In this document: positions 9,652 to 33,192 of the stretch, piece by piece
Position numbering within the stretch: position 1 is the first letter of the stretch
Layout of the letters: each line of letters begins with the position of its first letter
Assembly: GCA_964057225.1 (NCBI GenBank)
Contig: OZ059899.1
Location: 11,160,001 to 11,224,000, forward strand
Length of the DNA: 64,000 nucleotides
Reading direction: 5' to 3'
Source: Auanema rhodensis
Lineage: Eukaryota; Animalia; Nematoda
Position numbers and translations under genes: made by a program
The notes under the pieces: generated by a model
The model's input: only the letters and a program-made list of their open reading frames with translations
The model's database searches: none
What the model was told of the DNA's origin: nothing

Positions 9652-9725
9652 TGCCGCAAGCAGGGGTCGAAACTGCGACCTTGGGCTTATTAGACCCACG
9701 CTCTAACCGACTGAGCTATGGCGGC
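9652..9725 (-). tRNA. tRNA-Ile (AAT), acceptor-stem plus G53T variant (possibly pseudo)
   Basis: Substitutions at 9658 and 9672. Confidence 0.7.
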
Positions 9726-10317: not shown

Positions 10318-10391
10318 TGCCGCCAGCAGGGGTCGAACCTGCGACCTTGGGCTTATTAGACCCACGCTCTAACCGACTGAGCTATGGCGGC
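10318..10391 (-). tRNA. tRNA-Ile (AAT)
   Basis: Consensus copy. Confidence 0.95.
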
Positions 10392-10984
10392 TACGAAAGT
10401 ACGAAATAACAAAGCGCTGATTATAGGAAACATGAATGAATGCAGATATTCTCAATTCCGATTCATTAACTAGATCGTGGTCAGCATTTTACAACATTGA
10501 TAAAATAGAAACTGAGAAAAAAACATCAACAAATGACACTATTAACTTGGTTTTTTGAACAGCATTTTTATATTTCTTTTTTCACTATGAGAGAACTTAT
10601 ATTTATTGCTTTTTCAAAATTTTCTATTTTTAACATTATACATCTTGACTATCACACATTGAGAACAACAGTTGGCAATATTGGTTGTCACGTCATATTT
10701 CATGCAGTTAGATTTTCAGACACATTAATACCTTTGACTATTCTTCTTATGAGTTTTGTAACGATAGATCGTAATAGGAAATGAATTGGTATAATATGAA
10801 AAAATACAAGACATAGTCAAGATTGATTTCCCCAAATAGTATCATGTTTGCTTGTTATTCAATTAGAACACTTATTTTTTGATTGTTTTCTTGAAATATT
10901 CTTTTTTTTTCTTTAACAAAGTTATGACTGAGATCAAAATTTGAACTTACTTTTGAACAATTAAACAGAAATTTAAAAAATATT

Positions 10985-11058
10985 TGCCGCCAGCAGGGGT
11001 CGAACCTGCGACCTTGGGCTTATTAGACCCACGCTCTAACCGACTGAGCTATGGCGGC
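10985..11058 (-). tRNA. tRNA-Ile (AAT)
   Basis: Consensus copy. Confidence 0.95.
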
Positions 11059-11651
11059 TACGAAAGTACGAAATAACAAAGCGCTGATTATAGGAAACGT
11101 GAATGAATGCAGATATTCTCAATTCCGATTCATTAACTAGATCGTGGTCAGCATTTTACAACATTGATAAAATAGAAACTGAGAAAAAAACATGAACAAA
11201 TGACACTATTAACTTGGTTTTTTGAACAGCTTTTTTATATTTCTTTTTTCACTATGAGAGAACTTATATTTATTGCTTTTTCAAAATTTTCCATTTTCAA
11301 CATTATACATCTTGACTATCACACATTGAGAACAACAGTTGGCAATATTGGTTGTCACGTCATATTTCATGCAGTTAGATTTTCAGACACATTAATACCT
11401 TTGACCATTCTTCTTATGAGTTTTGTAACGATAGATCGTAATAGGAAATGAATTGCTATAATATGAAAAAATACAAGACATAGTCAACATTGATTTCCGA
11501 AAATAGTATCATGTTTGCTTGTTATTTAATTAGAACACTTATTTTTTGATTGTTTTCTTGAAATATTCTTTTTTTTTCTTTAACAAAGTTATGACTGAGA
11601 TCAAAATTTGAACTTACTTTTGAACAATTAAACAGAAATTTAAAAAATATT

Positions 11652-11725
11652 TGCCGCCAGCAGGGGTCGAACCTGCGACCTTGGGCTTATTAGACCCACG
11701 CTCTAACCGACTGAGCTATGGCGGC
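11652..11725 (-). tRNA. tRNA-Ile (AAT)
   Basis: Consensus copy. Confidence 0.95.
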
Positions 11726-12318
11726 TACGAAAGTACGAAATAACAAAGCGCTGATTATAGGAAACATGAATGAATGCAGATATTCTCAATTCCGATTCAT
11801 TAACTAGATCGTGGTCAGCATTTTACAACATTGATAAAATAGAAACTGAGAAAAAAACATCAACAAATGACACTATTAACTTGGTTTTTTGAACAGCATT
11901 TTTATATTTCTTTTTTCACTATGAGAGAACTTATATTTATTGCTTTTTCAAAATTTTCTATTTTTAACATTATACATCTTGACTATCACACATTGAGAAC
12001 AACAGTTGGCAATATTGGTTGTCACGTCATATTTCATGCAGTTAGATTTTCAGACACATTAATACCTTTGACTATTCTTCTTATGAGTTTTGTAACGATA
12101 GATCGTAATAGGAAATGAATTGGTATAATATGAAAAAATACAAGACATAGTCAAGATTGATTTCCCCAAATAGTATCATGTTTGCTTGTTATTCAATTAG
12201 AACACTTATTTTTTGATTGTTTTCTTGAAATATTCTTTTTTTTTCTTTAACAAAGTTATGACTGAGATCAAAATTTGAACTTACTTTTGAACAATTAAAC
12301 AGAAATTTAAAAAATATT

Positions 12319-12392
12319 TGCCGCCAGCAGGGGTCGAACCTGCGACCTTGGGCTTATTAGACCCACGCTCTAACCGACTGAGCTATGGCGGC
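12319..12392 (-). tRNA. tRNA-Ile (AAT)
   Basis: Consensus copy. Confidence 0.95.
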
Positions 12393-12985
12393 TACGAAAG
12401 TACGAAATAACAAAGCGCTGATTATAGGAAACGTGAATGAATGCAGATATTCTCAATTCCGATTCATTAACTAGATCGTGGTCAGCATTTTACAACATTG
12501 ATAAAATAGAAACTGAGAAAAAAACATGAACAAATGACACTATTAACTTGGTTTTTTGAACAGCTTTTTTATATTTCTTTTTTCACTATGAGAGAACTTA
12601 TATTTATTGCTTTTTCAAAATTTTCCATTTTCAACATTATACATCTTGACTATCACACATTGAGAACAACAGTTGGCAATGTTGGTTGTCACGTCATATT
12701 TCATGCAGTTAGATTTTCAGACACATTAATACCTTTGACCGTTCTTCTTATGAGTTTTGTAACGATAATTCGTAATAGGAAATGAATTGGTATAATATGA
12801 AAAAATACAAGACATAGTCAACATTGATTTCCCCAAATAGTATCATGTTTGCTTGTTATTCAATTAGAACACTTATTTTTTGATTGTTTTCTTGAAATAT
12901 TCTTTTTTTTTCTTCAACAAAGTTATGACTGAGATCAAAATTTGAACTTACTTTTGAACAATTAAACAGAAATTTAAAAAATATT

Positions 12986-13059
12986 TGCCGCCAGCAGGGG
13001 TCGAACCTGCGACCTTGGGCTTATTAGACCCACGCTCTAACCGACTGAGCTATGGCGGC
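12986..13059 (-). tRNA. tRNA-Ile (AAT)
   Basis: Consensus copy. Confidence 0.95.
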
Positions 13060-13652
13060 TACGAATGTACGAAATAACAAAGCGCTGATTATAGGAAACG
13101 TGAATGAATGCAGATATTCTCAATTCCGATTCATTAACTAGATCGTGGTCAGCATTTTACAACATTGATAAAATAGAAACTGAGAAAAAAACATCAACAA
13201 ATGACACTATTAACTTGGTTTTTTGAACAGCATTTTTATATTTCTTTTTTCACTCTGAGAGAACTTATATTCATTGATTTTTCAAAATTTTCCATTTTTA
13301 ACATTATACATCTTGACTATCACACATTGAGAACAACAGTTGGCAATATTGGTTGTCACGTCATATTTCATGCAGTTAGATTTTCAGACACATCAATACC
13401 TTTGACCATTCTTCTTATGAGTTTTGTAACGATAGATCGTAATAGGAAATGAATTGCTAACATATGAAAAAATACAAGACATAGTCAACATTGATTTCCG
13501 AAAATAGTATCATGTTTGCTTGTTATTTAATTAGAACACTTATTTTTTCATTGTTTTCTTGAAATATTCTTTTTTTTTCTTTAACAAAGTTATGACTGAG
13601 ATCAAAATTTGAACTTACTTTTGAACAATTAAACAGAAATATAAAAAATATT

Positions 13653-13726
13653 TGCCGCCAGCAGGGGTCGAACCTGCGACCTTGGGCTTATTAGACCCAC
13701 GCTCTAACCGACTGAGCTATGGCGGC
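13653..13726 (-). tRNA. tRNA-Ile (AAT)
   Basis: Consensus copy. Confidence 0.95.
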
Positions 13727-14320
13727 TACGAAAGTACGAAATAACAAAGCGCTGATTATAGGAAACGTGAATGAATGCAGATATTCTCAATTCCGATTCA
13801 TTAACTAGATCGTGGTCAGCATTTTACAACATTGATAAAATAGAAACTGAGAAAAAAACATCAACAAATGACACTATTGACTTGGTTTTTTGAACAGCTT
13901 TTTTATATTTCTTTTTTCACTATGAGAGAACTTATATTTATTGCTTTTTCAAAATTTTTCATTTTTAACATTATACATCTTGACTATCACACATTGAGAA
14001 CAACAGTTCGCAATGTTGGTTGTCACGTCATATTTCATGCAGTTAGATTTTCAGACACATTAATACCTTTGACCATTCTTCTTATGAGTTTTGTAACGAT
14101 AGATCGTAATAGGAAATGAATTGGTATAATATGAAAAAATACAAGACATAGTCAACATTGATTTCCCCAAATAGTATCATGTTTGCTTGTTATTCAATTA
14201 GAACACTTATTTTTTGATTGTTTTCTTGAAATATTCTTTTTTTTTCTTTAACAAAGTTATGACTGAGATCAAAATTTGAACTTACTTTTGAACAATTAAA
14301 ACAGAAATTTAAAAAATATT

Positions 14321-14394
14321 TGCCGCCAGCAGGGGTCGAACCTGCGACCTTGGGCTTATTAGACCCACGCTCTAACCGACTGAGCTATGGCGGC
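14321..14394 (-). tRNA. tRNA-Ile (AAT)
   Basis: Consensus copy. Confidence 0.95.
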
Positions 14395-14987
14395 TACGAA
14401 AGTACGAAATAACAAAGCGCTGATTATAGGAAACGTGAATGAATGCAGATATTCTCAATTCCGATTCATTAACTAGATCGTGGTCAGCATTTTACAACAT
14501 TTATAAAATAGAAACTGAGAAAAAAACATCAACAAATGACACTATTAACTTGGTTTTTTGAACAGCATTTTTATATTTCTTTTTTCACTATGAGAGAACT
14601 TATATTTATTGCTTTTTCAAAATTTTCCATTTTTAACATTATACATCTTGACTATCACACATTGAGAACAACAGTTGGCAATATTCGTTGTCACGTCATA
14701 TTTCATGCAGTTAGATTTTCAGACACATTAATACCTTTGACCATTCTTCTTATGAGTTTTGTAACGATAGATCGTAATAGGAAATGAATTGGTATAATAT
14801 GAAAAAATACAAGAAATAGTCAACATTGATTTCCCCAAATAGTATCATGTTTGCTTGTTATTCAATTAGAACACTTATTTTTTGATTGTTTTCTTGAAAT
14901 ATTCTTTTTTTTTCTTTAACAAAGTTATGACTGAGATCAAAATTTGAACTTACTTTTGAACAATTAAACAGAAATTTAAAAAATATT

Positions 14988-15061
14988 TGCCGCCAGCAGG
15001 GGTCGAACCTGCGACCTTGGGCTTATTAGACCCACGCTCTAACCGACTGAGCTATGGCGGC
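14988..15061 (-). tRNA. tRNA-Ile (AAT)
   Basis: Consensus copy. Confidence 0.95.
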
Positions 15062-15654
15062 TACGAAAGTACGAAATAACAAAGCGCTGATTATAGGAAA
15101 CGTGAATGAATGCAGATATTCTCAATTCCGATTCATTAACTAGATCGTGGTCAGCATTTTACAACATTGATAAAATAGAAACTGAGAAAAAAACATCAAC
15201 AAATGACACTATTAACTTGGTTTTTTGAACAGCTTTTTTATATTTCTTTTTTCACTATGAGAGAACTTATATTTATTGCTTTTTCAAAATTTTCCATTTT
15301 TAACATTATACATCTTGACTATCACACATTGAGAACAACAGTTGGCAATGTTGGTTGTCACGTCATATTTCATGCAGTTAGATTTTCAGACACATTAATA
15401 CCTTTGACCATTCTTCTTATGAGTTTTGTAACGATAATTCGTAATAGGAAATGAATTGGTATAATATGAAAAAATACAAGACATAGTCAACATTGATTTC
15501 CCCAAATAGTATCATGTTTGCTTGTTATTCAATTAGAACACTTATTTTTTGATTGTTTTCTTGAAATATTCTTTTTTTTTCTTCAACAAAGTTATGACTG
15601 AGATCAAAATTTGAACTTACTTTTGAACAATTAAACAGAAATTTAAAAAATATT

Positions 15655-15728
15655 TGCCGCCAGCAGGGGTCGAACCTGCGACCTTGGGCTTATTAGACCC
15701 ACGCTCTAACCGACTGAGCTATGGCGGC
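15655..15728 (-). tRNA. tRNA-Ile (AAT)
   Basis: Consensus copy. Confidence 0.95.
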
Positions 15729-15835
15729 TACGAAAGTACGAAATAACAAAGCGCTGATTATAGGAAACGTGAATGAATGCAGATATTCTCAATTCCGATT
15801 TATTAACTAGATCGTGGTCAGCATTTTACAACATT

Positions 15836-16216
15836 TGTCACATCTGCAAGCACATGGTAAACATGTGCGCGCTATTCAAATAGCGGGAGCCTGAACAAGC
15901 CCCGCCCACAACATGGGACACACATGGCACTCTTGCTTCTGGCCTAACCCAGATAGGTTGTCTTATAGCCATGTGAGTCTCATCTCTATATCATCTATAT
16001 ATATACTCTATTTAATACTTTTTTAGATCTCTTTATAATCTTTCTTAATGTAATTCTTATATTGTATTTTCTTGTTATCTGATAATGAATCCTTTTCTCT
16101 TTAAGTATTTGTCTTAATAAGGAAATCGGGGCGTTCGGGTCTGCCTACCTAAGGAACAAGGTAGAAGTACATATATCTTCCGACCATGAAAAGACGGGAA
16201 GAAACAATATGTAACG
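15836..16216 (+). repeat. 5' LTR of element B (TGTCACAT...ATGTAACG)
   Basis: Direct repeat of 25578-25958. Confidence 0.97.
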
Positions 16217-16229
16217 TGGAGGTTCCACC
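16217..16229 (+). promoter_or_regulatory. PBS of element B (tRNA-Gln)
   Basis: TGGAGGTTCCACC directly after the 5' LTR. Confidence 0.85.
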
Positions 16230-17368
16230 TTGCTTACTTTACTGTTAATTTATTGACATCAAGTTTACGAGACTTTTGGACTTAATTACCCAACAGTGAG
16301 GAGTAACCGAGCCGTGCACCATGATTTCCCCAAAAATTATTTTGGCTACCACTTCTCCTCCGCTCAACGAAAACTGGGAGGTGTCTGAGACGTTTGGGGA
16401 AACTATCAGACAATAGTTTTGACGAGCGTTACCTTTTTGTTATGCACGCGCGTGCTATTTTGATTCATTACTTTATGATGTGAATGTCCAGTGTGGCAAC
16501 AGAGCTCACTTTTTAGCTGAGTTGTTTGGAAGCTGGAGGCTGTTGGGATAATTTTATTTACGATTTTTGATTTTGATTCACATCCAAGGGTTCATCAGGG
16601 TTCTACTCCTGTTAACTCTTTTCTTATTAGTTCAGAGATAATAAGAATATTTAAATTCCTACCCACCCAAGTCCACTCTACGTCTGCCAACGTTTCCTTT
16701 TTCCTATATTATTGACAGATTACTGAATTTAAATTCCTATATCAATCTTAAATTACCTTCTAAATCTTTTGAAATTAAATTAAAAATTATCTTAATTAAG
16801 ATTTATTTTGAAATTCTTTCTACAAATCTTAATAAACTTTATAAAATTGAACTTAATATACGAGATGAGACATTTTTGTTTACTTTAAGCTTACTCACAT
16901 TCAAATAGTTGGCCCACGCGTACCAGCTGTTCGACATGTGTAGTCAATAACAGCTGTTAAAATTCAAAAGTTTTCAAACAGGCTTAAGGCACCATCTGTG
17001 ATTCCTTATTTGTCTCTAAGCTGACATTAGTGATTATAATATTCAAATATCACGACAGACGGTCAATGGTTGTTTACCATAAGCGCTAACATCTGGTGTC
17101 GTGACACATGGCTGGAGGCGGAGCTTGAAGCTTCAACGATCCTCCTTCATCAGACGCCATTGTCACAAACGTTTTTACTGGAGTCTAGTTGCTTCCAGTA
17201 CGCGCTCTTATATTCATCTAACTGTATTCACCAGCCACCCTGTCGGACTCGGACATCAGCGAGGAAAACAAAGATCAGGAACAAGGATCACCAGAGGTAC
17301 GCCAAGTTTTTGAATTTAATTCTAAAAACTTAAATACTCCATCCACCTACCTCTCTCCTTTTGAATTT

Positions 17369-20300
17369 TTGAGAGAAGAAGGTGATTCCTCTTCTTCTTC
17401 TCACTCTTCTTCTCTAACAATTAGAACGAGAAGTAAAAGCAGAAAGGCCATCACTGAGGAAACACCTCGGGCACCTACTACAGTACGAAATAGATCACCA
17501 AGTCGGTGGGCCGCTGCTATAACTAAAGCTTTTGAAAGAAAAATGACTCCTACCTCTCCATCTCCTAATTCTAATGTTGCTCCACCCTCTAGAAATATGG
17601 CAACTATTTTGAATTGTCATCTCTGTCCCAGGTATGACGGCTCTCGTAGCTTTCGTTCTTTTGTTGAATCTTTAAATAGAATTTTTAATGTTATGAATCT
17701 AAGCTTACCTGAGAGACTATTAATTTTGCCTCTTCTTTTGGAATCAAATGAAACAGCTCTCTCCTTGTATAATAGTATTCCTAGTGGCATAAGAACTAAT
17801 GGCCCATGGATTGTTTTGATGGATCAGCTCACTGAGCTTTTAGCGCCTAAAACAGATAAAAATTTCACCATAGCGCTTATTCATCGAATACAACAAGGAG
17901 ATAAATCTGTTCTCGATTTTAGTATGGAATTAGAGAGAATGGCAAGCACCATAATGTCACCAATGGATCCCGAGCGGGAACCAATGTTGAAAACGGCATT
18001 TTTAAATGGTTTAAAAGAGGAACTGGGTATTGCGGTTTTAACTAAAAACCCCGCCACTTATGAACAAGCTAAGAAATTAGCTAGGTTTGAAGAAGGCGTT
18101 CGGAATAGCTTCATGAAAAGAAATGAAGACACCAGCACCTTGAAGGAGCTCATAAATGCTTTACAACATAAATTAAGCTTTAGTGAAGAAAGAGAAAGAA
18201 GTAGGAATAATAATAATAATAAAAATTATAAAAATAATAAAAATAATAAAAAAAATAATAACTGGACTCAGCACAATAATGGCTCTAATGATTATGAGCG
18301 AGAGAGAGAGCGACCTTCTGCCGTACGTTATAATAATAATAACTCGCAGAACGGGAATATGAATAGGCGTCCTAACCCGGGAAACCGCCCATTTGCCAAT
18401 GGCAGAAATGCCAATAGCTCGTCTTGGAACCCTAGGCCTAGTTCCCCAAGAAGACAAAGACCATCAGCCAATGGGAATGGTAACTCAAGGGTATACAGCG
18501 TAGCGACCCCATTCATGCCACCGGTCACGTTGTGCCTGACTTTATTGGCACTCTCATGCCTTCCCTTTGGGTCGGCAAAATATCAGATTTGCGCTCAATC
18601 TGAAGGGGGTATATTAGTAACACCTCCTGTGGTCACAGGCTGCCATAAGGCAGAAATTGAAAAGGCTCACAGTGTTGAGGTAGAAATATATCTACCAAAG
18701 GCTGAGATAGAGTCATGGGAAGCATGGAAATGCTATGTGAAAAAGTATAAAAGCTGTGTGAGAGATTTCATGTTTTTGAGAGATCGTAACACCACATTCT
18801 CTCATATTGAAACAGTAGATAAGAAAGATTGTGTTCGAGCACATAGAAATCGTATGTGGAATGATAAAATCATGAATGCCCAACAGCATTCAGTTTTTGA
18901 AACACCATTAAACGAGCATAATCCAACTCGCTCTTGGTCCACTGAAGAATGTGTAGAAATTGAACAATTTGTATTGAAGCGAGGGATAATAACTAGATTG
19001 AAAGAAGATCACATTGTATCAGACTTATTTATAAATACTGATAATTGTAAAGGAAATGAAGGGTTTTGTGCAACTGGTGAAGGTGCAGTTATCTGGCAAC
19101 CACCTATCCCATCAGTTGTCTGTCACTATCAAAAACTTGGCCCCTTCTCCGCCATGTTGGGTGATCATATTCTTCTAGTTCACTCTATTGAAAGCGCTTT
19201 TGTTCTCCAAAATCATTCCACATCCGCTCACGTTCAATCTTGTTTCGAATTCGCTGTTTTTGAATCATCTTCTGAGGCAATTATCCGATTCACAGCATAT
19301 CCCCGTGTTTATAATTTGCTTGATCTTTCCAATACTTTGCTTAATGCTGATAGACGCAGAAATAAACGTAATGCATTACCTCAAAAACATCGCTCTTTCA
19401 GTGATGATTATCTTTTTGTTAATGCGAAATCCCAACCATATGCGTTTCCATTTCTAAGACCTACTTTCATTTTTGGATCTGCATCTATCACTAAGTTTTA
19501 CGCAAAATATATGAGATATGCAGCTACATCATCTTATGAGAGTTTGCTCCAATTCGCGATAGATAATCCACTGTTCATTGACACAATTGTTAGTTTAGGA
19601 TTGACAAAAGATCACATAACTAACTGGGCGAAGTCTAATAATTTCAAAGATCCCAATCTTTTGATTTTACAATGTATGGGTATAGAGGAAATTAAACTGG
19701 CTACTAGACAGGTGATTAATAGCATGAAATTGGATGATCTTATCACTCAAGTAGCTCGTCGTATAGAAGTTCCTCGGTTAAAAAGATCGTTGATGAAATC
19801 TACAACATCCATAGAAGACTTCTTTCGAGGAATGGCTCACGCAGTAGTATATCAAGCCACAATTCTTGATGGTACACAAACAGTTCCATCAATCGAACAG
19901 TTGGCAAGAGCCTTATATCCATCTATATTACCACGCAGTGGAAATATGAATCAATCTGAAATTATTGCAACTGCTCAAGGCATGTTATTCATGATCCGAC
20001 AACAATCGGGAAAAGAACAAATATCTCGTGACATGCAAGTCAGTCGACAACAAAAAGCTGATGCTACTGTTAGAAACAACCAAGAGCAAGATTTAGCAAT
20101 TATATCCAAGCTGCCTGACTATCACAACCTTTATACAAAGAATAGTACAGCATATTATGGATTTCCTCCACAGTCCATCGAATACCCACAGGAAAATCCT
20201 AAATTCAATAAAACAGAAGTTTTAGAATTTATAAGTTGGGTTAAAACTCAAATCACAACTGATAAAAATATGGTACAGCATACTACTGTAACCCCAATAA

Positions 20301-23300
20301 CTGCCACCAAAACTACAATTCGTAGTTTAACAACTCCTACCCCTAATGCGTACGAGAGAGGTCGAGAGTTGTATGTAGCAGAAGTATATGACAATGTTCT
20401 CCACAAATCAGAGCTTAAAACTAAAACGATAATAGATAATAAGTTGAATTATGGGTTTGAGAAAGCGCGTCTCTCCATAATTGACGAATTTCATCAACAG
20501 TTTCATACCATCTGTAAATCTCAAATGGAAACTGTAAAAAGCTGGCAAGCTATATTACGTATACATCCTACAATAGGAGTAAGAGCTATGCTTCAGCGGG
20601 ATGATATCGTTGCCCGATTTGTTGGAAGAAATGTTTTAAAAATAACAACTTGTCAGGAAATAGAACCACATTTCATTTATCGTAATCATTCTTACAATGA
20701 TAAATGTTATGCAGAGACCCCTGTTTTAACACACGATAAACAATTATTCTTTGCTCCTATCGATAGCTACGATTTGAGCACTGAAGGACATGAGATCAAT
20801 TGTGAACACAAAGAGACAGAAATTTGGTATGAAAATGGAACATGGAGAGATTATAAAGGTGACACACATAAAGTAGATAGTATTCATTCAGAAAAACATG
20901 ATCATTATGCTGAATTGAGTAAACTTCGATTCACAGGGCGGAATTTGTTTGAAAATTCGACTGAAAAATCCTTAGCCCTATCTATTGGATTAACTTATGG
21001 TTATAGTTTATCTACTTCACCTCACCATGATCTTCTCCGCGTAATTTCTCGTTCACGTGATTGGCCTCAAATTTCCTCTTTCATCTTCAAAGGAAGTAAA
21101 CTTATAAGAGATGCCAGGAAAATTGTTTTCTCCAATTGGGATCTGTTCATTGACTTTTGTATAGGTTCAATTGAACGAACACTCATTACCATCGGTTGTA
21201 TAACTCTGATATTATGTCTAATGATAGCATTATATTTCACTATAAAATGTTATCTCTCCCCTACTTCTATGTTAAAAATAAACCATATCATGTTGAGCCC
21301 AACAGCTCCACCACTTGAGGGAGATGAGATTCATGAAACAGTTAGTGATGAATTGATGCGGAGCTATTTTCCCACCATAATAACTTACATTCCTTTAGCC
21401 ATACCTTTTGTATGTCACACAACAACAAAGAAAAATGGACACATGTTACCGTTTGTTCATATTGACATTGAAGGTAGAGGACTGTTAGCATTATGGGATT
21501 CTGGAGCTACGGTCTCATATATTCCGTTCTCCACATTGGCATATATTGGAAGACAATATTTTACAAAATATTCTAAATCTGCATCCACTGCAAATGGATC
21601 AGAGTTTCGCTTTGTGGGAAAATGCAAGTTAGATGTGGGTATAGCAGGTTACCAAGTGGAACACGAATTTTTAATATCTGAAGACAATGACTGTCCAGGA
21701 CAAATGTTACTTGGTACCGATTTTATGCGTACGTTGGAAGAAAGAGAGATATTTACTACATCAAAACTATGTAAAGGAAAGTTGATTGTTGGTAATATGG
21801 AAACACCCTTAGTAAAACCTGGTTGTTTTGCATATAAAACCACAACTAAAACAGTAAATATCATAAGTTTGTCCACAGTAACAGTTCCACCACATAGTAC
21901 CTCCCACATATCTTTGCAAACAGGACCAGAATTAGATTTTGATCAATATGCTCTTTTAAAATCTAGCACAGGTCCTATATCAATTCCAGATGCCGCCATA
22001 GGACCTTTTCCTATTACTATGGTAGTATCAAACAATTCTTCAAAGCCAATTAAAATTAATAAAAATGACCACATTGGTTCAGGACTTATAGCATCTAAAG
22101 AAATTATGAACGATTATGTTCCACCTGAAGCTGATTGGGAAGATAAGTTACCAACTTTTCCTCAGCATCTTTTGGATGATTTGAACTTCAATTCTTGCAC
22201 TCTGTCTCATAAAATGAAGAAAAATCTGATCACAATCATTAAGGAAAACCAAACGGCATTTTTCAACCATGATCATAATATTGGTCTCTTTTGCGGACCA
22301 GTTGAACATGCCATTCCTATAAGATCTGATATGGATTTTCCAAAAAGTAGATCTTACAGAGTACCATTGGGTAAGCAAGAAGAAGTAGAACGGCAAGTGA
22401 AAGAAATGTTGTCGCAAGGTATAATCGAAAATTCGACGGCTACTTTCACTAGTCCAGTTGTTCTTGTGAAAAAGAAAGATAATTCTTTCCGGTTCGTTAC
22501 TGACTTTAGAGCATTGAATAGTGTTACTAAGAAACAAACATATAGCATCCCACACATTCCTGATATCATAGACTTAGCGGCTGGAGCTCAGTTCTTTTCG
22601 AATTTTGATCTCATTTCTGGTTTCTTCCAAATACCGTTGAAACGCTCAGATAGATACCTAACTGCTTTTACCACTCCATCAGGTACCTATCAGTATTGCC
22701 GAATGCCTATGGGATTGTGTGGAGCGCCACACACTTTTCAATCCGCAGTACGATACTTGCAATCTCTTGTTAGATGCAAACTGTTTGTATATCTAGATGA
22801 TTTGCTAATAATTTCGAACTCAGCTGAAGAACATTTAAGAGATATACAAGAAGTGCTGAAAAAGGTCACTGAACTAGGGTTAAAAATTAAGTTATCTAAA
22901 TGTTGCTTTGCAGCCACTGAAGTAAAGTTTTTGGGTTTTATAATAGGTAGAAATGGTGTTAAACCAGATCCTGCTAAAATACAGGCTGTTTCCGAATTTC
23001 CAAATCCAAGCACAGTTACGGCTGTCAGATCCTTTCTAGGTATGACTAACTATTTTCGACGGTTTATTCAAAATTATGCCGGAATAGCTGAGCCATTGTA
23101 TAAGTTAACACATAAGGATACTCCTTTTGAGTGGAAATCGGAACATGCAGACGCATTTAAAACTTTAAAAACATTACTGTGTACTGCCCCTGTACTGAAA
23201 CCTCCTAAAGCAGACCAACCTTTTGTTATAGAAAGTGATGGCAGTATGATCGCTGTGGGAGCAGTTTTATTACAATCAGCAGAGAAAAATTCTCCATTAC

Positions 23301-24976
23301 ACCCGATTGCGTTCGCTAGTAGAAAGTTGACTCCAGCGGAACGGAAATATCCTCCTATTGAAGTTGAAGCACTCGGTTTAGTCTTTGCTCTTCAACAATT
23401 CCGTACCTATGTATTAGGAGTACCTACCACAGTTATCACAGATCACCGACCATTAACCAGTTTAATGTCGCGTAAAGATCTCATAGGTAGATTAGCCAAG
23501 TATCAACTAATGATACAAGATTTCAACATAAAGATTGAATATCGTCCTGGCAAATTAAACAGTGTCTGTGATGCTCTCTCCAGGTATATAGGAAACGAAG
23601 CAAATGACAGTCGTCCTACTAAACCAAAGGACAAAGTAAACCCTGTTGATGCTTTTATTGCTCATATCACAACTATTTCTTCTATTGACCAACTAAATTG
23701 TGAAGAAATACGGAAAGTTCAAGCTGGAGTTCCCTGGATTCGCGAAGCACTTTCTCAAATTAATAATGATAACTGTCCGGCTAATATATCAGACCGGTAT
23801 GAAGAACGAGAAGGCATATTACATGCAAAACAAGCGAAAAATTATTTGAAACCATCTATTATTTTGCCTCGTAACGACAAAATAACTGATGTTGTTATCA
23901 AGTTTTTTCATGAAGATTCCAAAATTGGTGCACACCTAGGTATAAATAAAACTACTGATGCGATTCGACGACGATTCTTTTGGACTAATATGGTTCCACA
24001 AATAACTGAATTTATTAATCGTTGTACAAAATGTGCAAGTAGGAAATCTAACCCACACCAATCGTATATTCAACCTATGGGAAGATTTGTTATACCCGAA
24101 AAGCCATTTGATCGTATTCATGTAGATATACTAGGTCCTTTACCTCGCACTAATGATGGACATCGATACATCTTGAGTATTCAAGACGCTTTTAGTAAAT
24201 GGGGAACAACTTGCCCATTAATAACACAAACGGTTACTGAAATCACAAAAGCGTTTGTAATTAGATTTGTTTTCATATATGGACCACCAATGAGTATGAT
24301 AACCGATAATGGTAGTAGCTTTTTGTCATCTGAATTTCAAGCTATGTGTAAACAATTTGGAATTGAACACACTACTACGCTACCATATCATAAAAATGCT
24401 AATGGACAAGTGGAGAGACTTCATAGAACTTTAGAAGAAGCTCTCTCTTCATTCGTGAATGAACAACAAACTAACTGGGATATACACCTACCTAAAGTTA
24501 TGTTTGCGATCAATACGTTACCATACTCATCAACATCTATTAGTCCATATGTTGTATTATTTGGTCGGGATGCAAGACTTCCTATTGATCATCAATTGCC
24601 TGGAAATAATCTTCAAACTGAAGAACCAGCCAATCCTACAGAAGATTTTGTCAATAGATCGCTAATACAAAATGAAAGCACATCTAATATAGTAAAAGAT
24701 AGAATTGAAACATGCACAAAGAAGAATGAACAACGGTACAATACACGAAATAGAACACAAAATAAAGAAATTCAGGTTAATGACTTAGTTATGATAAAAG
24801 TGAATTCTACTCGAAACAAACTAACACCTTCATTCGAAGGGCCTTATTTAGTTACAGCAGTTCAAAGATCTTTCGTCGTGGTTCAAACAGATAAAGGAAA
24901 AAGCAGAAGAGTACACAAGGACTTCGTCAAACCTTACCAACGGACAACATCTATTCCGGTTATCACAATTTCTTGA
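17369..24976 (+). CDS. Gag-Env-Pol polyprotein (Gag, signal peptide, class III-like glycoprotein, TM, aspartic protease, RT, RNase H, integrase); true start uncertain
   Basis: Gag-like CPRYDG..F core; signal ~18515-18577; furin-type RRRNKR 19352-19369; TM ~21182-21244; LWDSGA (D at 21497); YLDD 22790-22801; IESDGS (RNase H); HHCC plus HVD/TDNG/ERLHR (integrase); GPY motif. Confidence 0.95.
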   Translation: MREEGDSSSSSHSSSLTIRTRSKSRKAITEETPRAPTTVRNRSPSRWAAAITKAFERKMTPTSPSPNSNVAPPSRNMATILNCHLCPRYDGSRSFRSFVESLNRIFNVMNLSLPERLLILPLLLESNETALSLYNSIPSGIRTNGPWIVLMDQLTELLAPKTDKNFTIALIHRIQQGDKSVLDFSMELERMASTIMSPMDPEREPMLKTAFLNGLKEELGIAVLTKNPATYEQAKKLARFEEGVRNSFMKRNEDTSTLKELINALQHKLSFSEERERSRNNNNNKNYKNNKNNKKNNNWTQHNNGSNDYERERERPSAVRYNNNNSQNGNMNRRPNPGNRPFANGRNANSSSWNPRPSSPRRQRPSANGNGNSRVYSVATPFMPPVTLCLTLLALSCLPFGSAKYQICAQSEGGILVTPPVVTGCHKAEIEKAHSVEVEIYLPKAEIESWEAWKCYVKKYKSCVRDFMFLRDRNTTFSHIETVDKKDCVRAHRNRMWNDKIMNAQQHSVFETPLNEHNPTRSWSTEECVEIEQFVLKRGIITRLKEDHIVSDLFINTDNCKGNEGFCATGEGAVIWQPPIPSVVCHYQKLGPFSAMLGDHILLVHSIESAFVLQNHSTSAHVQSCFEFAVFESSSEAIIRFTAYPRVYNLLDLSNTLLNADRRRNKRNALPQKHRSFSDDYLFVNAKSQPYAFPFLRPTFIFGSASITKFYAKYMRYAATSSYESLLQFAIDNPLFIDTIVSLGLTKDHITNWAKSNNFKDPNLLILQCMGIEEIKLATRQVINSMKLDDLITQVARRIEVPRLKRSLMKSTTSIEDFFRGMAHAVVYQATILDGTQTVPSIEQLARALYPSILPRSGNMNQSEIIATAQGMLFMIRQQSGKEQISRDMQVSRQQKADATVRNNQEQDLAIISKLPDYHNLYTKNSTAYYGFPPQSIEYPQENPKFNKTEVLEFISWVKTQITTDKNMVQHTTVTPITATKTTIRSLTTPTPNAYERGRELYVAEVYDNVLHKSELKTKTIIDNKLNYGFEKARLSIIDEFHQQFHTICKSQMETVKSWQAILRIHPTIGVRAMLQRDDIVARFVGRNVLKITTCQEIEPHFIYRNHSYNDKCYAETPVLTHDKQLFFAPIDSYDLSTEGHEINCEHKETEIWYENGTWRDYKGDTHKVDSIHSEKHDHYAELSKLRFTGRNLFENSTEKSLALSIGLTYGYSLSTSPHHDLLRVISRSRDWPQISSFIFKGSKLIRDARKIVFSNWDLFIDFCIGSIERTLITIGCITLILCLMIALYFTIKCYLSPTSMLKINHIMLSPTAPPLEGDEIHETVSDELMRSYFPTIITYIPLAIPFVCHTTTKKNGHMLPFVHIDIEGRGLLALWDSGATVSYIPFSTLAYIGRQYFTKYSKSASTANGSEFRFVGKCKLDVGIAGYQVEHEFLISEDNDCPGQMLLGTDFMRTLEEREIFTTSKLCKGKLIVGNMETPLVKPGCFAYKTTTKTVNIISLSTVTVPPHSTSHISLQTGPELDFDQYALLKSSTGPISIPDAAIGPFPITMVVSNNSSKPIKINKNDHIGSGLIASKEIMNDYVPPEADWEDKLPTFPQHLLDDLNFNSCTLSHKMKKNLITIIKENQTAFFNHDHNIGLFCGPVEHAIPIRSDMDFPKSRSYRVPLGKQEEVERQVKEMLSQGIIENSTATFTSPVVLVKKKDNSFRFVTDFRALNSVTKKQTYSIPHIPDIIDLAAGAQFFSNFDLISGFFQIPLKRSDRYLTAFTTPSGTYQYCRMPMGLCGAPHTFQSAVRYLQSLVRCKLFVYLDDLLIISNSAEEHLRDIQEVLKKVTELGLKIKLSKCCFAATEVKFLGFIIGRNGVKPDPAKIQAVSEFPNPSTVTAVRSFLGMTNYFRRFIQNYAGIAEPLYKLTHKDTPFEWKSEHADAFKTLKTLLCTAPVLKPPKADQPFVIESDGSMIAVGAVLLQSAEKNSPLHPIAFASRKLTPAERKYPPIEVEALGLVFALQQFRTYVLGVPTTVITDHRPLTSLMSRKDLIGRLAKYQLMIQDFNIKIEYRPGKLNSVCDALSRYIGNEANDSRPTKPKDKVNPVDAFIAHITTISSIDQLNCEEIRKVQAGVPWIREALSQINNDNCPANISDRYEEREGILHAKQAKNYLKPSIILPRNDKITDVVIKFFHEDSKIGAHLGINKTTDAIRRRFFWTNMVPQITEFINRCTKCASRKSNPHQSYIQPMGRFVIPEKPFDRIHVDILGPLPRTNDGHRYILSIQDAFSKWGTTCPLITQTVTEITKAFVIRFVFIYGPPMSMITDNGSSFLSSEFQAMCKQFGIEHTTTLPYHKNANGQVERLHRTLEEALSSFVNEQQTNWDIHLPKVMFAINTLPYSSTSISPYVVLFGRDARLPIDHQLPGNNLQTEEPANPTEDFVNRSLIQNESTSNIVKDRIETCTKKNEQRYNTRNRTQNKEIQVNDLVMIKVNSTRNKLTPSFEGPYLVTAVQRSFVVVQTDKGKSRRVHKDFVKPYQRTTSIPVITIS

Positions 24977-25565
24977 AGGTAGTTTTTTTTTAACAAAATC
25001 AAATTGTTGAAATTTTTTTTATTTTATTTTGTGCCATTTCTGATTGTACCACTTCTTTGTTGTTGATTGATTTTCTCTGAGAAGTCTGCTATTGTTTTAC
25101 AAAAGTTTGTTTTATTACTCCAACTCTCATTGAGTAGATTTTTTTTCAACATTCTCTTGTGAATCTTGCTATTTTTTATGCTTAATCATTACTTGTATTC
25201 ACCTTATGGACATTAGTCATACGGGTTAAACGAGTTTTCATTTTTTTGTACAGAACGGGCTCGACCTATTCTCAGGGTAACACCGTACCTGTACAACTCG
25301 AGAAAATGAACAACTATATCACAGTCGAATGGTTTAGAAGCAAAGCTCTCGTTTGCAAGCATTTCACTACTCAAGTGAATGGAATAGAATCTACTCGATA
25401 CTACATTTCGAATTCAACAAACTTGAAGAGACAATAGCTAAACTTTCAAATCGTATTGTATACACTTTTTTTTTATCCACTACACCATGATTTTTTTCCA
25501 ACACCCAACTATCTTAAAAAGTGAATTAATTTATTTTGTTTTTGAACGAGGACGTTCAACTTTTT

Positions 25566-25577
25566 AAGGTGGGGGGA
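25566..25577 (+). promoter_or_regulatory. Polypurine tract of element B
   Basis: AAGGTGGGGGGA directly before the 3' LTR. Confidence 0.85.
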
Positions 25578-25958
25578 TGTCACATCTGCAAGCACATGGT
25601 AAACATGTGCGCGCTATTCAAATAGCGGGAGCCTGAACAAGCCCCGCCCACAACATGGGACACACATGGCACTCTTGCTTCTGGCCTAACCCAGATAGGT
25701 TGTCTTATAGCCATGTGAGTCTCATCTCTATATCATCTATATATATACTCTATTTAATACTTTTTTAGATCTCTTTATAATCTTTCTTAATGTAATTCTT
25801 ATATTGTATTTTCTTGTTATCTGATAATGAATCCTTTTCTCTTTAAGTATTTGTCTTAATAAGGAAATCGGGGCGTTCGGGTCTGCCTACCTAAGGAACA
25901 AGGTAGAAGTACATATATCTTCCGACCATGAAAAGACGGGAAGAAACAATATGTAACG
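25578..25958 (+). repeat. 3' LTR of element B
   Basis: No difference from the 5' LTR seen by eye. Confidence 0.97.
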
Positions 25959-26448
25959 CATTGATAAAATAGAAACTGAGAAAAAAACATCAACAAATGA
26001 CACTATTAACTTGGTTTTTTGAACAGCATTTTTATATTTCTTTTTTCACTATGAGAGAACTTATATTTATTGCTTTTTCAAAATTTTCCATTTTTAACAT
26101 TATACATCTTGACTATCACACATTGAGAACAACAGTTGGCAATATTGGTTGTCACGTCATATTTCATGCAGTTAGATTTTCAGACACATTAATACCTTTG
26201 ACCATTCTTCTTATGAGTTTTGTAACGATAGATCGTAATAGGAAATGAATTGGTATAATATGAAAAAATACAAGACATAGTCAAGATTGATTTCCCCAAA
26301 TAGTATCATGTTTGCTTGTTATTCAATTAGAACACTTATTTTTTGATTGTTTTCTTGAAATATTCTTTTTTTTTCTTTAACAAAGTTATGACTGAGATCA
26401 AAATTTGAACTTACTTTTGAACAATTAAACAGAAATTTAAAAAATATT

Positions 26449-26522
26449 TGCCGCCAGCAGGGGTCGACCCTGCGACCTTGGGCTTATTAGACCCACGCTC
26501 TAACCGACTGAGCTATGGCGGC
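26449..26522 (-). tRNA. tRNA-Ile (AAT), T54G B-box variant
   Basis: A>C (plus) at 26468. Confidence 0.75.
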
Positions 26523-27115
26523 TACGAAAGTACGAAATAACAAAGCGCTGATTATAGGAAACGTGAATGAATGCAGATATTCTCAATTCCGATTCATTAA
26601 CTAGATCGTGGTCAGCATTTTACAACATTGATAAAATAGAAACTGAGAAAAAAACATCAACAAATGACACTATTAACTTGGTTTTTTGAACAGCATTTTT
26701 ATATTTCTTTTTTCACTATGAGAGAACTTATATTTATTGCTTTTTCAAAATTTTCCATTTTTAACATTATACATCTTGACTATCACACATTGAGAACAAC
26801 AGTTGGCAATATTGGTTGTCACGTCATATTTCATGCAGTTAGATTTTCAGACACATTAATACCTTTGACCATTCTTCTTATGAGTTTTGTAACGATAGAT
26901 CGTAATAGGAAATGAATTGGTATAATATGAAAAAATACAAGACATAGTCAAGATTGATTTCCCCAAATAGTATCATGTTTGCTTGTTATTCAATTAGAAC
27001 ACTTATTTTTTGATTGTTTTCTTGAAATATTCTTTTTTTTTCTTTAACAAAGTTATGACTGAGATCAAAATTTGAACTTACTTTTGAACAATTAAACAGA
27101 AATTTAAAAAATATT

Positions 27116-27189
27116 TGCCGCCAGCAGGGGTCGAACCTGCGACCTTGGGCTTATTAGACCCACGCTCTAACCGACTGAGCTATGGCGGC
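27116..27189 (-). tRNA. tRNA-Ile (AAT)
   Basis: Consensus copy. Confidence 0.95.
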
Positions 27190-27782
27190 TACGAAAGTAC
27201 GAAATAACAAAGCGCTGATTATAGGAAACGTAAATGAATGCAGATATTCTCAATTCCGATTCATTAACTACATCGTGGTCAGCATTTTACAACATTGATA
27301 AAATAGAAACTGAGAAAAAAACATCAACAAATGACACTATTAACTTGGTTTTTTGAACAGCTTTTTTATATTTCTTTTTTCACTATGAGAGAACTTATAT
27401 TTATTGCTTTTTCAAAATTTTCCATTTTTAACATAATACATCTTGACTATCACACATTGAGAACAACAGTTGGCAATGTTGGTTGTCACGTCATATTTCA
27501 TGCAGTTAGATTTTCAGACACATTAATACCTTTGACCATTCTTCTTATGAGTTTTGTAACGATAGATCGTAATAGGAAATGAATTGGTATAATATGAAAA
27601 AATACAAGACATAGTCAACATTGATTTCCCCAAATAGTATCATGTTTGCTTGTTATTCAATTAGAACACTTATTTTTTGATTGTTTTCTTAAAATATTCT
27701 ATTTTTTTCTTTAACAAAGTTATGACTGAGATCAAAATTTGAACTTACTTTTGAACAATTAAACAGAAATTTAAAAAATATT

Positions 27783-27856
27783 TGCCGCCAGCAGGGGTCG
27801 AACCTGCGACCTTGGGCTTATTAGACCCACGCTCTAACCGACTGAGCTATGGCGGC
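27783..27856 (-). tRNA. tRNA-Ile (AAT)
   Basis: Consensus copy. Confidence 0.95.
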
Positions 27857-28449
27857 TACGAAAGTACGAAATAACAAAGCGCTGATTATAGGAAACGTGA
27901 ATGAATGCAGATATTCTCAATTCCGATTCATTAACTAGATCGTGGTCAGCATTTTACAACATTGATAAAATAGAAACTGAGAAAAAAACATCAACAAATG
28001 ACACTATTAACTTGGTTTTTTGAACAGCTTTTTTATATTTCTTTTTTCACTATGAAAGAACTTATATTTATTGCTTTTTCAAAATTTTCCATTTTTAACA
28101 TTATACATCTTGACTATCACACATTGAGAACAACAGTTGGCAATGTTGGTTGTCACGTCATATTTCATGCAGTTAGATTTTCAGACACATTAATACCTTT
28201 GACCATTCTTCTTATGAGTTTTGTAACGATAATTCGTAATAGGAAATGAATTGGTATAATATGAAAAAATACAAGACATAGTCAACATTGATTTCCCCAA
28301 ATAGTATCATGTTTGCTTGTTATTCAATTAGAACACTTAGTTTTTGATTGTTTTCTTGAAATATTCTTTTTTTTTCTTTAACAAAGTTATGACTGAGATC
28401 AAAATTTGAACTTACTTTTGAACAATTAAACAGAAATTTAAAAAATATT

Positions 28450-28523
28450 TGCCGCCAGCAGGGGTCGAACCTGCGACCTTGGGCTTATTAGACCCACGCT
28501 CTAACCGACTGAGCTATGGCGGC
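28450..28523 (-). tRNA. tRNA-Ile (AAT)
   Basis: Consensus copy. Confidence 0.95.
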
Positions 28524-29116
28524 TACGAAAGTACGAAATAACAAAGCGCTGATTATAGGAAACGTGAATGAATGCAGATATTCTCAATTCCGATTCATTA
28601 ACTAGATCGTGGTCAGCATTTTACAACATTGATAAAATAGAAACTGAGAAAAAAACATCAACAAATGACACTATTAACTTGGTTTTTTGAACAGCATTTT
28701 TATATTTCTTTTTTCACTCTGAGAGAACTTATATTCATTGATTTTTCAAAATTTTCCATTTTTAACATTATACATCTTGACTATCACACATTGAGAACAA
28801 CAGTTGGCAATATTGGTTGTCACGTCATATTTCATGCACTTAGATTTTCAGACACATTAATACCTTTGACCATTCTTCTTATGAGTTTTGTAACGATAGA
28901 TCGTAATAGGAAATGAATTGCTATCATATGAAAAAATACAAGACATAGTCAACATTGATTTCCGAAAATAGTATCATGTTTGCTTGTTATTTAATTAGAA
29001 CACTTATTTTTTCATTGTTTTCTTGAAATATTCTTTTTTTTTCTTTAACAAAGTTATGACTGAGATCAAAATTTGAACTTACTTTTGAACAATTAAACAG
29101 AAATTTAAAAAATATT

Positions 29117-29190
29117 TGCCGCAAGCAGGGGTCGAACCTGCGACCTTGGGCTTATTAGACCCACGCTCTAACCGACTGAGCTATGGCGGC
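29117..29190 (-). tRNA. tRNA-Ile (AAT), acceptor-stem G67T variant
   Basis: Plus strand TGCCGCAAGC. Confidence 0.88.
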
Positions 29191-29783
29191 TACGAAAGTA
29201 CGAAATAACAAAGCGCTGATTATAGGAAACGTGAATGAATGCAGATATTCTCAATTCCGATTCATTAACTAGATCGTGGTCAGCATTTTACAACATTGAT
29301 AAAATAGAAACTGAGAAAAAAACATCAACAAATGACACTATTAACTTGGTTTTTTGAACAGCATTTTTATATTTCTTTTTTCACTATGAGAGAACTTATA
29401 TTTATTGCTTTTTCAAAATTTTCCATTTTTAACATTATACATCTTGACTATCACACATTGAGAACAACAGTTGGCAATATTGGTTGTCACGTCATATTTC
29501 ATGCAGTTAGATTTTCAGACACATTAATACCTTTGACCATTCTTCTTATGAGTTTTGTAACGATAGATCGTAATAGGAAATGAATTGGTATAATATGAAA
29601 AAATACAAGACATAGTCAACATTGATTTCCCCAAATAGTATCATGTTTGCTTGTTATTCAATTAGAACACTTATTTTTTGATTGTTTTCTTGAAATATTC
29701 TTTTTTTTTCTTTAACAAAGTTATGACTGAGATCAAAATTTGAACTTACTTTTGAACAATTAAAGAGAAATTTAAAAAATATT

Positions 29784-29857
29784 TGCCGCCAGCAGGGGTC
29801 GAACCTGCGACCTTGGGCTTATTAGACCCACGCTCTAACCGACTGAGCTATGGCGGC
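29784..29857 (-). tRNA. tRNA-Ile (AAT)
   Basis: Consensus copy. Confidence 0.95.
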
Positions 29858-30450
29858 TACGAAAGTACGAAATAACAAAGCGCTGATTATAGGAAACGTG
29901 AATGAATGCAGATATTCTCAATTCCGATTCATTAACTAGATCGTGGTCAGCATTTTACAACATTGATAAAATAGAAACTGAGAAAAAAACATCAACAAAT
30001 GACACTATTAACTTGGTTTTTTGAACAGCTTTTTTATATTTCTTTTTTCACTATGAGAGAACTTATATTTATTGCTTTTTCAAAATTTTCCATTTTTAAC
30101 ATTATACATCTTGACTATCACACATTGAGAACAACAGTTGGCAATGTTGGTTGTCACGTCATATTTCATGCAGTTAGATTTTCAGACACATTAATACCTT
30201 TGACCATTCTTCTTATGAGTTTTGTAACGATAATTCGTAATAGGAAATGAATTGGTATAATATGAAAAAATACAAGACATAGTCAACATTGATTTCCCCA
30301 AATAGTATCATGTTTGCTTGTTATTCAATTAGAACACTTATTTTTTGATTGTTTTCTTGAAATATTCTTTTTTTTTCTTTAACAAAGTTATGACTGAGAT
30401 CAAAATTTGAACTTACTTTTGAACAATTAAACAGAAATTTAAAAAATATT

Positions 30451-30524
30451 TGCCGCCAGCAGGGGTCGAACCTGCGACCTTGGGCTTATTAGACCCACGC
30501 TCTAACCGACTGAGCTATGGCGGC
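30451..30524 (-). tRNA. tRNA-Ile (AAT)
   Basis: Consensus copy. Confidence 0.95.
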
Positions 30525-31117
30525 TACCAAAGTACGAAATAACAAAGCGCTGATTATAGGAAACGTGAATGAATGCAGATATTCTCAATTCCGATTCATT
30601 AACTAGATCGTGGTCAGCATTTTACAACATTGATAAAATAGAAACTGAGAAAAAAACATCAACAAATGACACTATTAACTTGGTTTTTTGAACAGCATTT
30701 TTATATTTCTTTTTTCACTCTGAGAGAACTTATATTCATTGATTTTTCAAAATTTTCCATTTTTAACATTATACATCTTGACTATCACACATTGAGAACA
30801 ACAGTTGGCAATATTGGTTGTCACGTCATATTTCATGCAGTTAGATTTTCAGACACATTAATACCTTTGACCATTCTTCTTATGAGTTTTGTAACGATAG
30901 ATCGTAATAGGAAATGAATTGCTATCATATGAAAAAATACAAGACATAGTCAACATTGATTTCCGAAAATAGTATCATGTTTGCTTGTTATTTAATTAGA
31001 ACACTTATTTTTTCATTGTTTTCTTGAAATATTCTTTTTTTTTCTTTAACAAAGTTATGACTGAGATCAAAATTTGAACTTACTTTTGAACAATTAAACA
31101 GAAATTTAAAAAATATT

Positions 31118-31191
31118 TGCCGCAAGCAGGGGTCGAACCTGCGACCTTGGGCTTATTAGACCCACGCTCTAACCGACTGAGCTATGGCGGC
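31118..31191 (-). tRNA. tRNA-Ile (AAT), acceptor-stem G67T variant
   Basis: Plus strand TGCCGCAAGC. Confidence 0.88.
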
Positions 31192-31784
31192 TACGAAAGT
31201 ACGAAATAACAAAGCGCTGATTATAGGAAACGTGAATGAATGCAGATATTCTCAATTCCGATTCATTAACTAGATCGTGGTCAGCATTTTACAACATTGA
31301 TAAAATAGAAACTGAGAAAAAAACATCAACAAATGACACTATTAACTTGGTTTTTTGAACAGCATTTTTATATTTCTTTTTTCACTATGAGAGAACTTAT
31401 ATTTATTGCTTTTTCAAAATTTTCCATTTTTAACATTATACATCTTGACTATCACACATTGAGAACAACAGTTGGCAATATTGGTTGTCACGTCATATTT
31501 CATGCAGTTAGATTTTCAGACACATTAATACCTTTGACCATTCTTCTTATGAGTTTTGTAACGATAGATCGTAATAGGAAATGAATTGGTATAATATGAA
31601 AAAATACAAGACATAGTCAACATTGATTTCCCCAAATAGTATCATGTTTGCTTGTTATTCAATTAGAACACTTATTTTTTGATTGTTTTCTTGAAATATT
31701 CTTTTTTTTTCTTTAACAAAGTTATGACTGAGATCAAAATTTGAACTTACTTTTGAACAATTAAAGAGAAATTTAAAAAATATT

Positions 31785-31858
31785 TGCCGCCAGCAGGGGT
31801 CGAACCTGCGACCTTGGGCTTATTAGACCCACGCTCTAACCGACTGAGCTATGGCGGC
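31785..31858 (-). tRNA. tRNA-Ile (AAT)
   Basis: Consensus copy. Confidence 0.95.
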
Positions 31859-32451
31859 TACGAAAGTACGAAATAACAAAGCGCTGATTATAGGAAACGT
31901 GAATGAATGCAGATATTCTCAATTCCGATTCATTAACTAGATCGTGGTCAGCATTTTACAACATTGATAAAATAGAAACTGAGAAAAAAACATCAACAAA
32001 TGACACTATTAACTTGGTTTTTTGAACAGCTTTTTTATATTTCTTTTTTCACTATGAGAGAACTTATATTTATTGCTTTTTCAAAATTTTCCATTTTTAA
32101 CATTATACATCTTGACTATCACACATTGAGAACAACAGTTGGCAATGTTGGTTGTCACGTCATATTTCATGCAGTTAGATTTTCAGACACATTAATACCT
32201 TTGACCATTCTTCTTATGAGTTTTGTAACGATAATTCGTAATAGGAAATGAATTGGTATAATATGAAAAAATACAAGACATAGTCAACATTGATTTCCCC
32301 AAATAGTATCATGTTTGCTTGTTATTCAATTAGAACACTTATTTTTTGATTGTTTTCTTGAAATATTCTTTTTTTTTCTTTAACAAAGTTATGACTGAGA
32401 TCAAAATTTGAACTTACTTTTGAACAATTAAACAGAAATTTAAAAAATATT

Positions 32452-32525
32452 TGCCGCAAGCAGGGGTCGAACCTGCGACCTTGGGCTTATTAGACCCACG
32501 CTCTAACCGACTGAGCTATGGCGGC
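32452..32525 (-). tRNA. tRNA-Ile (AAT), acceptor-stem G67T variant
   Basis: Plus strand TGCCGCAAGC. Confidence 0.88.
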
Positions 32526-33118: not shown

Positions 33119-33192
33119 TGCCGCCAGCAGGGGTCGAACCTGCGACCTTGGGCTTATTAGACCCACGCTCTAACCGACTGAGCTATGGCGGC
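33119..33192 (-). tRNA. tRNA-Ile (AAT)
   Basis: Consensus copy. Confidence 0.95.

Follow-up and report, generated by a model that had tools for sequence, protein, structure and literature searches.

The window, that is, the whole 64,000-nucleotide stretch of Auanema rhodensis DNA analysed here, contains a host tandem array on the minus strand (7503..54370) that is broken up by LTR elements. The array is built from 667-bp units that all contain a tRNA-Ile(AAT) gene; it has 38 of these genes, and 29 are identical. The 667-bp "satellite" is itself this tRNA-Ile gene array. Inserted in it are four LTR elements of full or nearly full length and one likely solo LTR, all in the unit spacer and at different offsets (about 162-166, 200-203, 488-491, 544, and 608 in the 667-bp unit). 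Because the five insertions occupy five different unit positions, Ty3-like targeting at a fixed distance is ruled out. All five avoid the tRNA gene, which is compatible with chance (the gene takes up 74 of the 667 bases of the unit). A search of titles and the first parts of abstracts in the openly accessible literature returned nothing relevant on integration into tRNA arrays in nematodes.

Element B (15836..25958, plus strand, as are all of its features given below) is a full-length Ty3/gypsy LTR element with a 4-bp target duplication, and its flanks correspond to unit positions 200-203. Element A (1..7502, minus strand) is a sister copy of B that is clipped by the window edge; the two are 99.2% alike, and the frame of A is broken twice (near 4730 and 3949), with a 5-base run at only one of the breaks. 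Element C (36256..46892, plus strand) has 358-bp LTRs with one difference (357/358 identical), and its reading frame is split in two at 41990-42078, within env. No integrase catalytic core was found in any frame upstream of the C 3' LTR (45893-46534 region), which means that a frameshift alone does not separate C from a full copy. Since the core is absent yet the LTRs are nearly identical, C may have moved in trans or been deleted recently. Element D (54371..64000, minus strand) has an open frame of 2854 codons (55435-63999) that runs past the window end; its 3' LTR is the only one inside the window, and its 5' part lies beyond. The remaining insertion is a likely solo LTR of another family (49651..49978, strand unassigned), 328 bp long with TG..CA ends, a 5-bp duplication, and a GA/TA microsatellite. 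The array unit immediately before it is truncated.

Long terminal repeats of Ty3/gypsy elements usually have TG...CA termini, which are not strictly defining. In B, the 5' LTR (15836..16216) starts with TG and ends with CG; it is identical to the 3' LTR (25578..25958) over 381/381 bp. A tRNA-Gln type primer-binding site (16217..16228) follows the 5' LTR, and a polypurine tract (25566..25577) precedes the 3' LTR. With identical LTRs and intact catalytic motifs, B is a clean and very young copy. When LTR ends are set by the target duplications and the primer-binding site, canonical TG...CA ends are absent from the LTRs of A/B, C, and D: A/B have TG...CG, and C and the 3' LTR of D have CG...CG. 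The U5 end is CG in all three families, while U3 of C and D starts with CG; the target duplication is 4 bp. Related contigs in four contig sets (X1-X4, described below) likewise cease matching the C LTR at 36613. Non-canonical LTR termini gave nothing relevant in the search of titles and abstract openings in the openly accessible literature.

Gag, Env, protease, reverse transcriptase (RT), RNase H (RH), and integrase are encoded by B in one stop-free frame of 2584 codons (17222..24976). The sequence-only reading had proposed that B and D each carry one stop-free frame in the order Gag, signal, glycoprotein, transmembrane segment, protease, RT, RNase H, and integrase, and both the open reading frames and the Pfam matches confirm it. 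The start that it used for B (17369) is a TTG codon; the first ATG is at 17543, from which B encodes 2477 aa. The Pfam order in B and D is a weak gag, PF00606/PF24664, aspartyl protease, RVT_1, RNase H, and integrase. At this base composition, the chance of a stop-free run over the approximately 920 env codons is about 1e-28. B and D have slippery heptamers in scattered places, with no common site at the junctions, and B has no extra ORF of at least 200 aa. In each of the three families, a long open stretch lies ahead of the first Met: 107 codons in B (17222-17542), 252 in C (38056-38811), and at least 286 in D (63142-63999), with chance expectations of about 1e-3, 1e-8, and 1e-9, respectively. 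These stretches suggest an unrecognised translation start, which might be a non-AUG codon or lie in an upstream exon.

The Gag region of B has a capsid-like domain (17597..18121), after which comes a basic tract rich in N, R, and Q, with matches to PF03732 (E 1.7e-4) and PF19259 (E 2.8e-3) that are both below cut-off, and no CCHC knuckle was found in it. An internal signal-peptide-like segment, with its cleavage site placed by eye, lies at 18497..18577, and the Env transmembrane segment lies at 21182..21250. Hydrophobic segments occur at aa 426-444 and 1321-1339 in B and at aa 607-625 and about 1530-1569 in D. The Pol region (21446..24391) includes protease (DSGA), RT (YLDD), RNase H, and integrase (HHCC and core). 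Assignment of the elements to Ty3/gypsy (Metaviridae), also made from the letters alone, is borne out by the Pol order of protease, RT, RNase H, and integrase with gypsy-type RT and RNase H, by the RT-RH matches (all of the top ones are gypsy-type), and by the presence of LTRs, a tRNA primer-binding site, a polypurine tract, and a short target duplication.

A/B, C, and D are three diverged families. Identity in RT-RH is 68% between B and D and 84% between C and D, and identity in the N-terminal part of env is 30% and 67%, respectively. As the sequence-only reading had argued, the three share the layout, and the order is kept across diverged families, as expected of a maintained architecture. 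Its further claim that A and C show the same order once homopolymer frameshifts are repaired needs correction for both: a 5-base run is found at just one of the two breaks in A, and C has no integrase core.

The middle region of the frame (18578..21181 in B) is predicted to be the ectodomain of a class III fusion glycoprotein, with two conserved halves and furin-like sites at 19358 and 19775. PF24664 is above cut-off in D and C only; the env of B passes no Pfam cut-off, and PF00606 is below cut-off in all three families. The AlphaFold model of env has a pLDDT of 73.6 and a pTM of 0.52. Foldseek against PDB gave herpesvirus gB as the best match (E 5.6e-11), and against BFVD the best matches were glycoproteins of Beihai rhabdo-like virus 3 and Nyavirus, with low TM-scores (0.16-0.25) among the top matches. 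VIA comparison of the model with prefusion HSV-2 gB gave a Z of 14.2 and an rmsd of 7.1, with 381 residues aligned across the model. In an alignment of 34 rows, 14 of the 15 ectodomain cysteines of B are conserved in most of the 33 other rows. Taken with the PF24664 matches in D and C, these models favour the glycoprotein fold anticipated for the region, and the middle region of B, C, and D is predicted to be a class III fusion protein like gB and the G of nyami- and rhabdo-like viruses. Such an HSV/gB-type env with a signal and a transmembrane segment is also a feature of nematode GAG-ENV-POL elements.

The spacer between the env halves is 373 aa long in B and 416 aa in D, and its length in relatives is 25-503 aa. 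It includes a predicted helical insert of approximately 245 aa (19442..20176 in B) that is common to B, C, D, and some rhabditid relatives. Folded alone, the insert has a pLDDT of 49.5, and a search with its fold gave only generic long-helix matches (Z of 5.4 or less) and no Atlas match.

Homologues of env were sought by HMMER among 1.84 billion representatives, and 254 were found; an earlier word-indexed search with the env region among proteins of 1394-4437 aa had passed 0 of 4596 candidates. In the 150 listed of the 254 homologues, env lies after gag and/or before Pol in 69 and after integrase in five, and 76 have env only. Two of the five with env after integrase were scanned, and both are Pao elements (P0034 and P0077). 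Gag, both env halves, and RT occur in order in 24 chains, B and D among them. Named homologues, among those listed, are nematode proteins of Caenorhabditis, Auanema, Acrobeloides, Aphelenchus, Panagrolaimus, and Halicephalobus. Many of the database homologues are predicted gene models. Some chains leave little space for introns, for example P0033, with 2338 aa on a 7,928-bp contig. The signal-like segment is present in 52 of the 58 proteins with gag before env. In one gag-env-pol relative, P0043 (2797 aa), gag and env are separated by an RRM domain (PF00076). In P0172 (C. brenneri, 1417 aa), near kin of a gag-env-pol chain, gag leads straight to RT with no env match, and this protein is either a gene model or a deletion derivative. 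Within the nematode group, most of the rows labelled as lacking env are gene models or fragments from the pol side, and therefore loss of env is not countable from them.

By RT-RH, the closest relatives belong to Auanema (69% identity), Heterorhabditis (67%), and Caenorhabditis (63%), and the best env identity to any relative is 32%. A FastTree tree was built from 140 of the 156 RT-RH hits (at least 85% cover; 16 were dropped for low cover), and a quick IQ-TREE tree from 49 chosen rows. Both are quick methods without bootstrap, and named Cer1 and Mag references are not among their rows. B, C, and D fall inside a 12-row rhabditid group in both trees (FastTree 100; SH-aLRT 99). In the IQ-TREE tree they belong to a 32-row side (SH-aLRT 99) on which every one of the 23 named rows is a nematode, and rows annotated as 17.6-like are on the opposite side of this 99-supported branch. 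The nematode side includes P0279, a protein from C. brenneri whose contig is 12,007 bp long and whose RT-RH identity to the families described here is 48%; it was matched to Cbre_errantivirus_2, in the part of the published list covered here, by species and contig size alone. Four gag-env-pol chains fall outside the 32-row side, in line with the statement, in the passages compared of the eLife paper, that the GAG-ENV-POL order is not monophyletic (PMC13524379).

Evidence for expression comes from the four contig sets, X1-X4, which are contigs only, from one study, and whose RNA status is guessed, as none of the listed runs is recorded as RNA. B-like sequence in these contigs is mostly 95-100% alike. 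In three of the four runs, among the deepest contigs listed, a GT..AG segment (17297..21398) is skipped, which removes gag and env, and this joint suggests that the B family is transcribed and spliced. The gag-env junction is bridged by none of the contigs listed, and short contigs cover parts of gag and env; these contigs therefore support neither invariable removal of env by splicing nor a 1:1:1 output. In X2 and X4, the contig with the 17297-21398 joint also lacks pol. In X2, 3,291 nt that take in all of pol (21425-24715) are skipped, with an 8-nt microhomology (21425-21432 / 24716-24723) and no GT-AG at the joint, and on our own reading the X4 joint fits the same 3,291-nt skip plus a 40-nt GT..AG intron at 24736-24775. 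For RNA without gag, env, and pol, the best reading is that it came either from an internally deleted copy, which would suggest an expressed non-autonomous derivative, or from a template switch. The four sets give little close cover of C and no informative joint.

We consider it probable that the elements are young Ty3/gypsy LTR elements, kin of the published nematode GAG-ENV-POL group, that encode Gag, a predicted class III Env, and Pol in one frame, likely cut by host signal peptidase and their own protease. This explanation draws on the frame and its order, the anatomy of LTRs, primer-binding site, polypurine tract, and target duplications, the conserved cysteines, and the RT-RH grouping; its gB-like fold is predicted, and its mechanism is one that we infer. 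Gag would be synthesised in the cytosol, and the internal signal would thread Env into the ER. Signal peptidase would free the Env N-terminus and leave Gag on a membrane anchor, while the Env transmembrane segment would halt transfer, so that protease, RT, RNase H, and integrase would face the cytosol as an extended tail of Env. Gag and Pol would in this way stay on the one membrane face where particles bud, and Pol would enter the particle via Env and not by a Gag-Pol fusion. The element protease may cut Gag and Pol free at V/I-N-x-V/I-like sites, and Env may be cleaved by furin. By analogy with Drosophila gypsy, enveloped particles might then carry RNA between cells, for example from soma to germ line.

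Reading the V/I-N-x-V/I-like motif as a protease site rests on gypsy cleavage preferences. The motif was defined on B, C, and D after viewing them; of 52 proteins, 21 have it immediately ahead of the signal, these three included, and it is absent from the other 31. The background is 92 of 751 Gag windows, and shuffles gave a mean of 5.7, with 0/1000 as high. After the transmembrane segment the enrichment is weak, with the motif in 21 of 88 proteins, a shuffle mean of 10.4, and one of 1000 shuffles as high.

In foamy viruses, pol is made from a spliced RNA. A comparable arrangement, in which Pol comes also or mainly from RNA with the leader joined to an acceptor just before the protease, would leave the single frame real and the output other than 1:1:1. 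The GT..AG joint fits such a scheme, as its donor is good and its acceptor is 44 nt ahead of 21443, where the protease N-terminus has an in-frame ATG. Two out-of-frame ATGs are upstream of 21443, however, neither the acceptor nor the Met has a counterpart at the aligned position of C or D, and the spliced RNA of X2 and X4 that lacks pol cannot encode Pol. With its support limited to the contigs of one study, we consider this scheme unlikely. Equal amounts of Gag, Env, and Pol, as the sequence-only reading had proposed, would in any event be expected from unspliced RNA only. It could also be argued that Env is a passenger spacer, in elements that move intracellularly as ordinary retrotransposons and keep the env frame open only to let ribosomes reach pol. 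Selection against stops would follow from read-through by itself, divergence is faster in env than in RT (30-35% versus 68% identity between B and D), and the length of the mid-env spacer varies. Against this, cysteines, signal, and transmembrane segment are conserved across distant hosts and the model of env is coherent and prefusion gB-like, both of which argue for selection on the fold, and the env changes between A and B are eight synonymous versus four non-synonymous (small numbers). We therefore regard a passenger Env as very unlikely, and a glycoprotein expressed from the common frame remains our preferred reading.

The sequence-only reading had also presented the order and the lineage as possibly undescribed, and this claim falls, since the passages compared of Chary and Hayashi (eLife 2026, PMC13524379) describe GAG-ENV-POL, with only gB-type env, in Ty3/gypsy elements of Nematoda, Bryozoa, and Platyhelminthes. 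For the nematode case, with ENV and POL swapped in order, these passages credit Sacco et al. 2022 (PMC13524379). The eLife paper was the sole relevant match for the layout in one ORF in a search of the openly accessible literature. Its table, as covered here, has 36 nematode elements, eight of them with a tRNA-Gln primer-binding site, and its screen has ENV-POL hits in Auanema, Diploscapter pachys, and Heterorhabditis (PMC13524379). A categorically new lineage of enveloped Metaviridae would agree with the lack of any close relative (69% in RT-RH and 32% in env at best) and with the nearest named hosts (Auanema, Heterorhabditis, and Diploscapter) appearing as screen hits only, with no named element in the part of the table covered. 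It is nevertheless extremely improbable, as order, env type, host phylum, and primer-binding site type are already in print in those passages and the RT tree joins B, C, and D to a listed element. A narrower proposal is a rhabditid sub-lineage with its own biology, in which the integrase would accept LTRs that end in CG and favour tRNA gene arrays, Env would have a lineage-specific helical domain that may be receptor-binding or fusogen-shielding, and splicing from the leader would uncouple Pol from Env; we consider this rather unlikely as a whole.

With the layout already in print, the main claim adds little. Threading and cutting of the polyprotein, and packaging of Pol if signal peptidase separates it from Gag, are not addressed in the parts of the literature covered. 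Small leads on the specificity of integration and on how fusogens evolve come from the CG termini, the location in a tRNA array, and the env insert.

The NERV elements of Sacco et al. 2022 reportedly have a continuous gag-env-pro-pol ORF, an env like Nyamiviridae glycoproteins, and accessory ORFs (a helicase and a small protein). An env of that kind agrees with the Nyavirus matches of the B env model, and no counterpart of at least 200 aa to the accessory ORFs is seen in B. Insect errantiviruses (gypsy, ZAM, 17.6) have a separate env downstream of pol, unlike B, C, and D. Nor are the latter members of Belpaoviridae (Atlas, Cer13, Tas), as they are without Peptidase_A17/DUF1759 and their env is ahead of the protease. 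Atlas virus and nematode belpaoviruses likewise encode one stop-free polyprotein, in the order Gag-Pol-Env, according to the passages compared of Merchant et al. 2022 (PMC9094657). Atlas virus, in the same passages, has a BEL/Pao RT (YVDN), env last, and a class II phlebovirus-like fold, in contrast to the YLDD, middle env, and predicted class III fold found here (PMC9094657). The Pao elements P0034 and P0077 have the PF24664 glycoprotein, as here, but belong to another superfamily and have env at the C-terminus. The env reported for Cer1 was considered as a precedent and set aside, as it has been reinterpreted as a CERV export protein in the part of the source covered (PMC10309623). For the elements of Chary and Hayashi, the passages compared do not state a single ORF and do not mention CG termini, an env insert, splicing, or tRNA arrays (PMC13524379). 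B, C, and D are like the nematode elements in those passages in Ty3/gypsy Pol, order, gB-type env, LTRs, tRNA-Gln primer-binding site, and RT-RH grouping, and the primer-binding site of B and C is the reverse complement of the Gln site given for two Caenorhabditis elements in the part of the eLife supplement covered (PMC13524379). B, C, and D are thus new families within the published nematode GAG-ENV-POL kind.
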